A stretch of 64,000 nucleotides of DNA, from NCBI RefSeq assembly GCF_016026235.1, contig NZ_CP065613.1; one strand, written 5' to 3'. The position numbers were made by a program. This stretch comes from Escherichia coli. Its GTDB lineage: Bacteria; Pseudomonadota; Gammaproteobacteria; Enterobacterales; Enterobacteriaceae. The first letter of the stretch is position 1, and the number at the start of each line of letters is the position of its first letter. Shown one piece after another: positions 53,601-56,600 of this stretch.

Positions 53601-56600
53601 ATAATTTATACCATATTAATTGAATTCTAGAGAATATGCTCATAGCTTTAACTCCTTTCCGAGCCTTTCATCCCATTCAAATGGAGTTATCTTATCATAC
53701 CCCGATCCTTGATGAAATGTTAATTCGCCTACATATATTTTTTCTTGAACAAGATATAAATCAACCCTAAGATATTTGAAACCTTGACTTAGTTTTTTAG
53801 ATATATTTAGAGCGTTTTCTAACTGACTTGGTTTACTAATATTCTTCACATTAAATTTTGAAAGATCTTTTCCCCTTCTCGCCCAGCAAAAATCTAACAT
53901 ATTCCAACTAGTATCATATATAGAACGATAATTCCCTCCCTCACGATCTAACGACACATAAATAAATTTCGGTTCTCCATTAAAACAATGAATTTTTATA
54001 TCATTAGGAACTTTCCCTGCCTCATCCTCTAATAACCTTTCAACAATTATACGCCTATCAATATTTTTATATTGCCATTCTCTTCCGTGATGGTAAATAT
54101 TACAATTAAGTGTTCTAATAAATTTCCACTTAACCTCATCAATATTCAATAAATTCTTGTCTCTAACAATAAAATAATCGCCACAATAGTGGTTCGATTT
54201 TATAACAAACTTACCCTGTGGTAAAGACTCAAAGGTAATATCAAAAGGGGTATCATAAACCTTTAACAAATCAATTATATTATCTCTCGTTCCCAGCCTA
54301 TTTTCCACATATTCTCGCACTCTAATTTTATCAGCACATATTGTATGTAATAGTGTTCTGTCATTTAGTTTCAACCATTGTAACTTTTGATTTAATGTCT
54401 TCGGATTGTTCAATCCGAGAGGGTATCCCTGATATTCAAGAAACTGCTTTTTTATAATCAAGCTATCTGGAGTAATCAGAACGACAAAGCATTTCAATAA
54501 ATACTTTATATTATACAATATATACATCAATTTCATGGAAAGATTTTTTCTATTCATATTAGAATCTCAAATAATTTATGCTGTCTTACCCATTCTCTTG
54601 CCTGACCTTTCGATACTACTACCCCAACGTTGCTCATTTTTAATATTGGTAAATCGCTAATAGAATCAGAGTAAGTTGTTATATGATACTCAGAAACATC
54701 TAACGACAAAACACCTTTTAACATTAATACTTTATTATATCCCATGCAATTCTTGCCACTAATTCTCCCTAAACACCTGCCTCTATTATCAAATTTAATT
54801 TTTGTGCATACAAAGCCATTAATCTCTAATGCTTTAACTAAATATTGAATATAAATATCATAGCCTCCAGAAATAATAATAACCTCATCTCCATCTTTTA
54901 AATGCTTATTCAATATCTTAATTATGGCAGGATTAATTCTGCGCAATATAATTTCATTAACGTAATCACGAGCCATTACATTAAGAATATCCCTTTCAAT
55001 ATTTTTTAACATATACAATAAAATTCTTTTCCTTAAGCTTTCCCCCAATCTTATTTTATTTATTATTTGTTCGATTTTGAAAATGGATAATGAAGATGCC
55101 ACCCTATTTAAAGTCTGTATTTTGATGTTATTACATATCCCCAAACGATCTATTACATAGTATATAAACCCATCGCCAGTTTGAAAATCAACTAAGGTTT
55201 CACACAGATCAAATAATGCTATCTTTTTTAACTTCATACATCTGCTCTAAAATTCTGATTACATACAACATTTGTTTTTTCGTTCCAATAGTAATTCTGA
55301 CACATAACTCGACCTCTTTCATATGAGATAAATCACGAACAAATATTAAATTAGATTTTAAACGTTCAATGAATGCTTTTTTATCATTCATCGATTTAAA
55401 CTCAATAACCAAAAAGTTCCCCTCTCCATATACAATATTTTTTTGACCTATATTTATATTTTTCAACTTATCATAAAAAAAACGCTTAGCCTGATTAACT
55501 TCCTTAACATAATTATTCATATATTCAACTTCGTCTAATGCATTCAAAGCGGCAATCTGACTTAGCTGAGGTATATTTTTTGCATTTCTGACTTTATTTA
55601 TTGCACCTAACAAATCTTGTGACGCTATTATATATCCCATTCGCATCCCTGCCAATGAAAATGCTTTGGAAAATGTTCGCGTAATAATTATGTTATTAAA
55701 GGAGTTTACAAAATCAGCACACGTTAATTTTGCAAATTCATAATAGGCTTCATCGATAATAAAATATATTCCTTTATATTTTTCTACAAGATAATGTATA
55801 TCTCCTTTAGGAATAAGAGTACCTGTAGGATTATTTGGGTTACATAAATAGGCCATTTGAGGTTGAAACTTATTGAGATCGCTTTCAAACTTCTTTAATG
55901 ACCAATAGTAATTATCTTCAAAAATTGAATAACAAATTGTTGCCCCTTGAGCTTCACCTGTTGTTCTGAAATTATCATACGTAGGTGCTAACATCAATAT
56001 TTTATCATTTTCATTAATTAATGTACGAATGATAGACTCGTGTGCTGAGTCTGAACTACAAAAATATTGGATATATTCCTTTGGCACCCCCACATAGTTT
56101 GATATCTTTATTATTAAATCTTTATTGCTCACATCTGGATAATACCTAATTAGATTATTTACCAACGAATTCATTAATGCATTTTTTACTCTTTCTGGCG
56201 GTTCAATAGTAGATTCGTTCCAATCTAATTTTAATATTGTTTCTTTATTTTCACTCTCCCATATAGCGTGGGATGCAAGTTTATATGGTTTCATTTTTTT
56301 TACGAACTTATTCAATTTTTACTCCATTACGTTCTGTGCATAACATTTAAAGAATTTAAACATGCTCAAGAAAACACAATATCTTATCTTAGATAATTTT
56401 CAGAATTGCTCCTATGTTTCATAATTCGTATATAAGCCCATACATTTATTTTATTCTTAATATAATCTCGTGAAGAATAATCGACATATTGTGTCAAAAA
56501 AAATATATATCTATTCCACATACTGAATATCTTCACTAACTTCTGCAAATTGAGAGCATAAGTAATCAGACACAGAATATTCAATATATTATACTTTCCA

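Follow-up and report, generated by a model that had tools for sequence, protein, structure and literature searches.

The first three genes of the Escherichia coli O143 O-antigen operon probably install a serinol amide on galacturonic acid

In the Escherichia coli contig NZ_CP065613.1 (assembly GCF_016026235.1), a stretch of 64,000 nucleotides, hereafter the window, carries an O-antigen gene cluster whose first three genes encode a pyridoxal-phosphate (PLP)-dependent aminotransferase, a HAD phosphatase, WfdQ, and an ATP-grasp ligase, WfdR. The best explanation of this trio, which we hold to be probable by analogy with capsule enzymes of Campylobacter jejuni, is that it forms the head of the O143 operon and installs a serinol amide on galacturonic acid (GalA). 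That its product is the GalA amide of serinol (2-amino-1,3-propanediol) is very probable; that the ligase utilizes serinol phosphate, with the phosphatase acting afterwards, appears likely from the same analogy, and we are about as confident that the acceptor would be a GalA residue already transferred, rather than UDP-GalA. Of the grounds for this proposal, the protein families, the homology to enzymes of known function, the linkage of the genes, and the serogroup are direct observations. Both the structure of the polysaccharide and its gene cluster are known already, as is the chemistry of the three enzymes in another genus, and the trio reveals no new kind of system; the modest new side would be GalA instead of glucuronic acid (GlcA), a stand-alone ligase in a Wzx/Wzy pathway, and predicted functions for the E. 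coli and Shigella enzymes.

Organization of the trio and serogroup of the locus

Three open reading frames (ORFs) at 53640–56315, the first after the JUMPstart element, agree in coordinates and Pfam families with the trio that an earlier sequence-only reading had proposed as a candidate route to an amino-alcohol amide of GalA:

55209–56315, minus strand: HisC-like PLP class I/II aminotransferase, 368 amino acids, TTG start
54554–55237, minus strand: HAD-IB phosphatase WfdQ, 227 amino acids
53640–54557, minus strand: TupA-like stand-alone ATP-grasp ligase WfdR, 305 amino acids

A GGAG motif is located 6 nt 5' of the TTG start of the aminotransferase gene, and RefSeq annotates the identical start. 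The overlaps between consecutive genes (aminotransferase/HAD, 29 nt; HAD/ligase, 4 nt; ligase/acetyltransferase, 4 nt; acetyltransferase/wzx, 8 nt) are as expected of a single operon, in which the three genes form one translationally coupled unit.

By megablast, the DNA of the trio is found in 4 of 5,426 complete E. coli genomes at 99.6–99.7% identity, and wzx and wzy are annotated as 'O143 family' in all four. Exact-sequence look-ups name the Wzx protein of the window 'O143 family O-antigen flippase' and place window proteins in 90%-identity clusters that include Shigella boydii entries, with the UniProt names WfdR for the ligase (B5L379_SHIBO), WfdQ for the HAD protein (B5L388_ECOLX and B5L378_SHIBO), and WfdS for the acetyltransferase (B5L390_ECOLX). 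This identifies the locus as the O143 O-antigen cluster of E. coli, shared with S. boydii and previously deposited from both, and comparison with the deposited clusters thereby supplies the serogroup that the sequence-only reading could not assign. The deposited clusters represent this same locus; in the window, wzy is intact and an extra insertion sequence (IS) separates ugd from gnd. The deposited entries bear non-committal 'wfd' names, and in several database entries the ligase appears as 'glycosyl transferase' and the aminotransferase as 'histidinol-phosphate transaminase'.

The repeat unit of S. boydii O8 is ->3)-GlcpNAc-(1->2)-GalpA(3OAc,4OAc)6N-R-(1->3)-GalpNAc-(1->4)-GlcpA-(1->, in which R is 2-aminopropane-1,3-diol (PMC10609480), in line with the earlier statement that some Shigella and E. 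coli O antigens carry uronic-acid amides. O143 is among the O antigens of enteroinvasive E. coli that are the same as, or similar to, Shigella ones (PMC8767346), and its initiating sugar is N-acetylglucosamine (GlcNAc) (2019 E. coli O-antigen review). With this initiator, the order of linkages in the published structure places GalA at the end of the O unit, as its terminal sugar. The gene content matches the repeat unit one for one: ugd for GlcA, gla for GalA, gne for N-acetylgalactosamine (GalNAc), and the trio for the amide, while the three glycosyltransferases fit a GlcNAc-initiated tetrasaccharide and a single O-acetyltransferase is present. A targeted search found no literature pairing O143 or S. 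boydii with serinol, propanediol, or galacturonic acid.

Comparison with the serinol-amide enzymes of Campylobacter jejuni

Serinol-amide formation in the C. jejuni capsule (CHARACTERISED system) has been reconstituted by the Raushel laboratory: Cj1437 converts dihydroxyacetone phosphate (DHAP) to (S)-serinol phosphate, and Cj1438C, the C-terminal domain of Cj1438, catalyzes the ATP-dependent amidation of glycosidically bound GlcA with serinol phosphate (PMC11800397, PMC13276843, PMC12409886). UDP-GlcA is not accepted by Cj1438C, whereas glycosides are (PMC11800397), so that amidation in C. jejuni takes place after glycosyl transfer. Cj1435 hydrolyzes the phosphate from the amide, after amide formation (PMC11800397, PMC13276843), and chain extension stalls until it has removed that phosphate (PMC11800397, PMC13276843, PMC12409886). 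When Cj1435, the ligase, and ethanolamine phosphate are combined in one pot, an oligomeric mixture is still formed (PMC12409886), from which it follows that free amine phosphate is not rapidly broken down by the phosphatase.

Cj1437, Cj1438C, and Cj1435 of HS:2 and HS19.10, HS19.11C, and HS19.09 of HS:19 belong to the same three enzyme families as the aminotransferase, WfdR, and WfdQ. The C. jejuni and window proteins are homologous end to end, at 38% (through a Campylobacter proxy), 35%, and 24% identity, respectively; the genes are adjacent in both, and the product that they would have in common is of one type, a surface-polysaccharide hexuronic acid amidated with serinol. The sequence-only reading was unable to say whether this three-gene logic had been characterised; in the C. 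jejuni homologues it has. The two systems differ in several respects. The acid is GalA in the window O antigen and GlcA in C. jejuni; the ligase is a stand-alone protein of 305 amino acids in the window and the C-terminal domain of a GT2 fusion in C. jejuni; assembly proceeds via Wzx/Wzy on undecaprenyl diphosphate in the window and via an ABC-transporter capsule pathway in C. jejuni. The gene order is aminotransferase–HAD–ligase in the window and ligase–aminotransferase–(decarboxylase)–HAD in C. jejuni, and the window has no Cj1436-type decarboxylase and hence no ethanolamine variant.

The Cj1438C and Cj1435 sequences were taken from the supplement of a Raushel-laboratory paper. Related loci were collected by a ligase-profile scan of one genome per species followed by tblastn, and C. 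jejuni itself is not among the loci returned. The scan returned four Campylobacter loci, each with an aminotransferase gene and a HAD gene after that of the ligase; the ligase domain and the HAD protein of Campylobacter novaezeelandiae share 72% identity each with Cj1438C and Cj1435, respectively.

The aminotransferase

The aminotransferase matches a single Pfam family, Aminotran_1_2 (PF00155, E = 2.8e-47). Its matches in the PDB and NCBIfam are HisC, CobD, and aspartate aminotransferases, and the best PDB matches are histidinol-phosphate aminotransferases (HisC, E = 5e-35), in keeping with the HisC/CobD-like class assigned to it by the sequence-only reading. A sugar aminotransferase of the DegT/DnrJ/EryC1 type was considered and rejected, as Pfam gives PF00155 only and no such family is matched; the profile searches thus place the aminotransferase outside the sugar 3- and 4-aminotransferases and, as described below, leave the ligase in the expected family. 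Against the hisC model TIGR01141, the protein reaches 262.4 bits, under the equivalog cut-off of 276.55, and against the CobD model TIGR01140, 142 bits against a cut-off of 290 (E = 2e-41). The bona fide hisC is located at 32409–33479, in the complete his operon of the window, and its product shares 28% identity (121 bits) with the aminotransferase.

The C. novaezeelandiae aminotransferase encoded between the ligase and HAD genes is 38% identical to the window protein over the whole length (E = 6e-80). With aminotransferases of this type, the window protein reaches 234–246 bits, clearly above its scores with HisC (121 bits) and with the decarboxylase in the Cj1436 position (59–61 bits). In two loci that contain both PLP genes, the window protein scores 208–234 bits against the product of the gene in the Cj1437 position and 59–61 bits against that in the Cj1436 position, the decarboxylase, with which it shares 22% identity. 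These far higher scores against the Cj1437-position protein assign the window enzyme, by sequence comparison, to the transaminase (Cj1437) type and not to the decarboxylases. In the alignment of aminotransferases, the PLP lysine (SK motif) is kept and matches that of HisC; two arginines common to HisC, which we take to bind the substrate phosphate, are also kept in the window protein. Furthermore, an N-terminal motif, KLDWNE(S/A)(T/S), is common to the window and Campylobacter aminotransferases and is absent from HisC. By analogy with Cj1437, the enzyme is predicted to convert DHAP and glutamate to (S)-serinol phosphate.

HisC and the HAD-type histidinol phosphatases have the same folds as the window aminotransferase and HAD protein and are their nearest curated families. 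The substrates of the histidine pathway are also 2-amino-alcohol phosphates, serinol phosphate being histidinol phosphate with a hydroxyl replacing the imidazole; however, the two window proteins fall under the equivalog cut-offs and lie in another genomic context. The ligase has no model in NCBIfam, and none of the models there is specific for the aminotransferase or the HAD protein. The closest relatives of the aminotransferase are encoded on a metagenomic contig (63% identity), in Gallaecimonas pentaromativorans (53%), and in Vibrio alginolyticus (47%). In one Campylobacter sp. capsule locus (L038, 4631–5530), the ORF of the Cj1437-like aminotransferase ends in a run of glycine codons (...LEGGGGGG), at a site where the C. 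novaezeelandiae protein reads SGGGGY; such a run would fit a homopolymeric G tract and expression that is phase-variable.

The phosphatase WfdQ

WfdQ belongs to the Pfam family HAD (PF12710, E = 1.9e-20) and is placed by NCBIfam in HAD-IB, with a weak similarity to HAD-type histidinol phosphatases (E = 1e-15). A PDB sequence search with WfdQ gave one weak, uncharacterised match only. WfdQ aligns end to end with Cj1435 (221 amino acids, E = 7e-18) at a low identity of 24%, and HAD motifs I–IV are visible in the alignment. In many HAD enzymes, motif I contains two aspartates, the second of which is the general acid/base; in WfdQ, motif I is DxCxT (FDLCETL; FDFCETL in Cj1435), with a cysteine in place of the usual second aspartate. 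This DxCxT is kept over the whole Cj1435-like family, comprising the window and the related loci L022, L025, L038, L055, L057, L058, and L059. WfdQ would, like Cj1435, cleave the phosphate hydrolytically from a phosphoserinol amide, here that of GalA.

The ligase WfdR

WfdR matches ATPgrasp_TupA (PF14305, E = 2.2e-45) along practically the full profile (positions 2–241 of 241) and shares 35% identity with Cj1438C over 291 amino acids (E = 2e-46). A PDB sequence search with WfdR found no relative and hence no solved structure of this ligase family. The AlphaFold model of WfdR has a pLDDT (predicted local distance difference test) of 94.6, and its top Foldseek matches in the PDB are all ATP-grasp ligases (Ddl, LysX/ArgX, RimK, and PsnB), with a probability of 1.0 and a template-modelling (TM) score of approximately 0.4. 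Judged by this model, WfdR has the ATP-grasp fold; together with the full-profile match, this upholds the earlier naming of the third gene. By analogy with Cj1438C, WfdR would use ATP to join C6 of GalA to serinol phosphate through an amide bond.

Two residues of WfdR, Arg211 and Lys182, were singled out, Arg211 by an exploratory residue scan. Arg211 is present in 9 of 9 trio-linked ligases, compared with an arginine in 1 of 17 other homologues and a lysine in one more. The alignment also shows Arg211 in the alanine-adding ligase of O167, on which ground its use as a marker specific for serinol phosphate was rejected; at best, Arg211 may mark an anionic group on the amine substrate. In a check for a membrane anchor, the N-terminal helix of WfdR had a hydropathy of 1.73 in O143, a borderline value, and its counterparts in the homologues scored low. 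TupA of Bacillus, the namesake of PF14305, takes part in teichuronopeptide synthesis and belongs to the same Pfam family as WfdR; its biochemistry is not known to have been defined.

Linkage of the three genes in other bacteria

The aminotransferase gene lies next to genes for a TupA-like ligase and a Cj1435-like HAD protein in the window and in the loci L022, L025, L038, L039, L055, L057, L058, and L059. In Gallaecimonas, V. alginolyticus, and a metagenomic contig, the genes have the same order, aminotransferase–HAD–ATP-grasp, and head wzx/wzy clusters. Nine genes (aminotransferase, HAD, ligase, acetyltransferase, wzx, GT2, GT4, wzy, and GT2) are collinear between window positions 44875–56315 and L055 (5784–13899) and L057 (7001–15086), with amino-acid identities of 42–69% against the metagenomic locus, whose upstream gene organization is that of the V. 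alginolyticus locus, and 35–62% against G. pentaromativorans. The G+C content of the collinear block is approximately 0.30–0.34 in every host. The block looks, from these comparisons, like an old block transfer, and the bacteria that carry it probably make a very similar repeat unit.

In the metagenomic locus L059 (1454–5282), a GT2–ATPgrasp_TupA fusion of 650 amino acids is directly followed by an aminotransferase–HAD fusion of 627 amino acids, which serve as Rosetta-stone evidence, at the level of sequence, for a functional link among the three activities. Genes for a radical-SAM protein and a methyltransferase come after the two fusions.

Compared with these loci, 45 ligase homologues were examined that belong to Collinsella and other Actinobacteria, Bacillota, Bacteroidia, and Helicobacter, and in the flanking sequence covered, up to 8 kb on each side, none is accompanied by an intact gene for an aminotransferase or a HAD protein; the Helicobacter locus L051 contains short fragments of both. 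The O167-type cluster (L060, NZ_CP062824.1) serves as a control within E. coli. It encodes an ATP-grasp amidoligase at 10598–11332, 35% identical to WfdR, and has gla between wzz and ugd, the same place as in the window, but no aminotransferase or HAD gene is present in the cluster. L-Alanine is an ordinary metabolite and requires no dedicated amine synthesis. The O167 O antigen carries amide-linked L-alanine (2019 E. coli O-antigen review); the comparison thus indicates that the ligase is common to uronic-acid amides, and the aminotransferase and HAD genes occur only where the amine is a non-standard metabolite.

Proposed pathway and alternative explanations

For E. coli, all the catalytic steps, the point at which the phosphatase acts, and the use of a lipid-linked acceptor are inferred by analogy with C. 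jejuni, as follows. The HisC-like aminotransferase would form (S)-serinol phosphate from DHAP and glutamate, while Ugd, Gla, and Gne would supply UDP-GlcA, UDP-GalA, and UDP-GalNAc. WecA and the three glycosyltransferases would build GalA-GalNAc-GlcA-GlcNAc-PP-undecaprenol (PP, diphosphate), with GalA added last, at the non-reducing end. WfdR would then activate the carboxylate at C6 of the terminal GalA as an acyl phosphate (ATP to ADP and Pi) and couple it to the amine of serinol phosphate, after which WfdQ would strip the phosphate to leave the neutral serinol amide. Finally, WfdS would O-acetylate O-3/O-4 of the amidated GalA, Wzx would flip the unit, and Wzy would polymerize it via O-2 of GalA.

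Several points weigh against this pathway. The catalytic assignments rest on 24–38% identity to characterised systems, and the C. novaezeelandiae aminotransferase, a positional orthologue, stands proxy for Cj1437 in all comparisons. WfdR shares 38–41% identity with Bacillota homologues found without aminotransferase and HAD genes, slightly more than the 34–36% that it shares with the Campylobacter ligases, so that its amine specificity is not to be read from overall similarity. The acceptor and the timing could also differ between the two systems, given GalA versus GlcA and a Wzx/Wzy versus an ABC-transporter pathway, and the aminotransferase–HAD fusion of L059 could be read as uniting consecutive steps, that is, as a source of free serinol. 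In addition, the pathway takes O143 and S. boydii type 8 to be equivalent, and the identity of their structures is partly an assumption; an O143 structure by nuclear magnetic resonance was reportedly published by Landersjo et al. in 1996, and Liu 2008 reportedly supports the equivalence likewise.

The alternative that survives best concerns the acceptor. WfdR might turn UDP-GalA into its serinol or serinol-phosphate amide, which a glycosyltransferase would then transfer. Many O-antigen sugar modifications occur on the nucleotide sugar, and the sequence of a stand-alone ligase is compatible with amidation of UDP-GalA, which the sequence-only reading had named as a possible substrate. However, the homologous Cj1438C utilizes glycosides and refuses UDP-GlcA (PMC11800397), and the GalA, terminal in the O unit, is reachable after transfer, like the terminal GlcA in C. 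jejuni. By this analogy, UDP-GalA is probably not the acceptor, and amidation at the nucleotide-sugar level appears unlikely.

A second alternative keeps the enzymes and changes their order. In the sequence proposed earlier, the HAD protein frees serinol from serinol phosphate, and the ATP-grasp ligase joins the free serinol to GalA. This order is chemically reasonable; the aminotransferase and HAD domains are fused in the related locus L059, and fusions often unite consecutive steps; and WfdQ, just 24% identical to Cj1435, could have a different substrate. On the other hand, in both characterised C. jejuni systems serinol phosphate is what the ligase uses, and the amide that it forms is the substrate of the phosphatase (PMC11800397, PMC13276843); the one-pot reaction still gave oligomers in the presence of Cj1435, so that the free amine phosphate is not quickly lost (PMC12409886); and WfdQ and Cj1435 both carry the unusual DxCxT motif I. 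With the HS:2 and HS:19 enzymology as a guide, the order proposed earlier is probably to be reversed, and release of free serinol before ligation is somewhat less likely even than amidation of UDP-GalA.

Very improbable is a third alternative, in which the PLP enzyme is a decarboxylase of the CobD/Cj1436 type that yields ethanolamine phosphate or aminopropanol phosphate, and the substituent is not serinol. The enzyme is of the same fold family as CobD (TIGR01140, E = 2e-41) and matches threonine-phosphate decarboxylases in the PDB (E = 1e-11 to 1e-15), but it scores far higher against transaminase-position (234–246 bits) than decarboxylase-position (59–61 bits) proteins and higher with the hisC model (262 bits) than with the CobD model (142 bits), and the published S. 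boydii O8 structure contains 2-aminopropane-1,3-diol (PMC10609480). That the aminotransferase and HAD genes are merely spare histidine paralogues (HisC and a histidinol phosphatase) with no relation to the O antigen is hardly credible: the hisC score lies only narrowly under its cut-off and WfdQ weakly matches HAD-type histidinol phosphatases (E = 1e-15), but both proteins are under their equivalog cut-offs, a complete his operon with its own hisC exists in the same window, the two genes are translationally coupled to the ligase gene inside the O-antigen operon, and distant bacteria keep the trio together in their polysaccharide loci.

The reading preferred here, amidation of transferred GalA with serinol phosphate, can be extended to a joint description of the trio as a variant of the Campylobacter system, which we offer tentatively and hold to be somewhat more doubtful than an even chance. 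In this variant, a stand-alone, GalA-specific ligase with a basic amphipathic N-terminal helix would work on the tetrasaccharide linked to undecaprenyl diphosphate, at the membrane, with the terminal GalA as its target; a checkpoint before O-acetylation and flipping would be formed by the transient phosphoserinol amide; Arg211, conserved in trio-linked ligases, would read the anionic group of the amine; histidine biosynthesis would be the source from which the aminotransferase–HAD pair was recruited; and Vibrio-type capsule loci would have the entire block of nine genes in common with the O143 cluster.

The proposed pathway gives concrete, testable functions to WfdQ, WfdR, and the upstream aminotransferase of an O antigen of enteroinvasive E. 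coli and Shigella, and would extend the C. jejuni serinol-amide pathway to GalA and to Wzx/Wzy O antigens in Enterobacteriaceae, Vibrio, and Gallaecimonas. In practical terms, WfdR is a predicted GalA-specific amidoligase for chemoenzymatic glycan synthesis. The proposal also offers a correction of the database names 'glycosyl transferase' for the ligase and 'histidinol-phosphate transaminase' for the aminotransferase. O143 and O167 are each listed in the 2019 E. coli O-antigen review with an unexplained 'one extra glycosyltransferase'. The window contains exactly three Pfam-supported glycosyltransferases, the number expected for the repeat; since these three suffice and several ligase entries are named 'glycosyl transferase', the extra glycosyltransferase of O143 is most likely the misannotated ATP-grasp ligase. 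A misnamed ligase may also explain that of O167.

The surrounding gene cluster

The remaining features of the cluster are as follows:

56801–56839, minus strand: JUMPstart, 39 bp, read directly as cagtgctctggtagctgtaaagccaggggcggtagcgtg, with a match to the ops element GGCGGTAG at 56805–56812
53197–53643, minus strand: hexapeptide-repeat O-acetyltransferase WfdS (Pfam Hexapep; NCBIfam WcaF/WbbJ-type O-acetyltransferases; UniProt name)
51999–53204, minus strand: wzx, O143-family flippase (RefSeq annotation of a 99.7% identical locus; exact protein name)
51124–52143, minus strand: GT2 glycosyltransferase (Pfam PF00535; 297 amino acids from the annotated start)
50012–51127, minus strand: GT4 glycosyltransferase (Pfam Glyco_trans_4_2 / Glycos_transf_1)
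48753–50015, minus strand: wzy, O143-family polymerase (intact ORF of 420 amino acids)
45989–47002, minus strand: galE/gne-type 4-epimerase, for UDP-GalNAc supply (Pfam Epimerase; annotation)
44875–45678, minus strand: third glycosyltransferase, GT2 (Pfam PF00535, E = 2.6e-39)
39898–41091, minus strand: ugd, UDP-glucose 6-dehydrogenase, for UDP-GlcA supply (Pfam UDPG_MGDP_dh domains; annotation)
38828–39832, plus strand: gla-type NAD-dependent epimerase, UDP-GlcA to UDP-GalA (Pfam Epimerase; between wzz and ugd)

The ops element within JUMPstart is the site of RfaH-dependent antitermination that heads O-antigen operons; here, JUMPstart is located downstream of galF (57098–58003) and approximately 485 nt upstream of the first gene of the trio. 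Pfam and annotation agree with the downstream acetyltransferase, wzx, two glycosyltransferases, and wzy listed by the sequence-only reading. WfdS is a candidate for the 3/4-O-acetylation of the amidated GalA. Past wzy, the order is an IS remnant, the galE/gne epimerase, the third glycosyltransferase (GT2), and gnd; gne is also recorded in the O143 cluster by the 2019 E. coli O-antigen review. The gla gene, which had been placed at the same coordinates before, lies between wzz and ugd, and its product matches Pfam Epimerase and, as the second-best PDB family, the 6zl6/6zla series (E = 1e-43), presumably the UDP-glucuronate 4-epimerase of Bacillus cereus. The G+C content is approximately 0.30 over the cluster and 0.52 in its flanks.

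Two stretches of the cluster bear traces of IS elements. Between ugd and gnd, an ORF of 431 amino acids on the minus strand (41299–42594) encodes a DDE_Tnp_1 transposase of an IS element; this stretch is absent from all four complete E. coli O143 genomes, in which window positions 37400–58100 are covered at 93–94%. Between gne and wzy, positions 47000–48750 are degenerate and poor in ORFs, and the equivalent in E. coli D10 is annotated as a frameshifted integrase-core (IS) pseudogene. This degenerate stretch breaks the collinearity that the block otherwise has with the Vibrio-type and Gallaecimonas loci, and suggests that gne joined the cluster through an IS event.

The wzy gene, intact in the window, is annotated as frameshifted in strain D10 (L001, 9738–10819), which may accordingly be rough or semi-rough. 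From JUMPstart/ops to the first gene (56316–56800), approximately 485 nt are very AT-rich and free of annotated features in the window, and likewise in strain D10.

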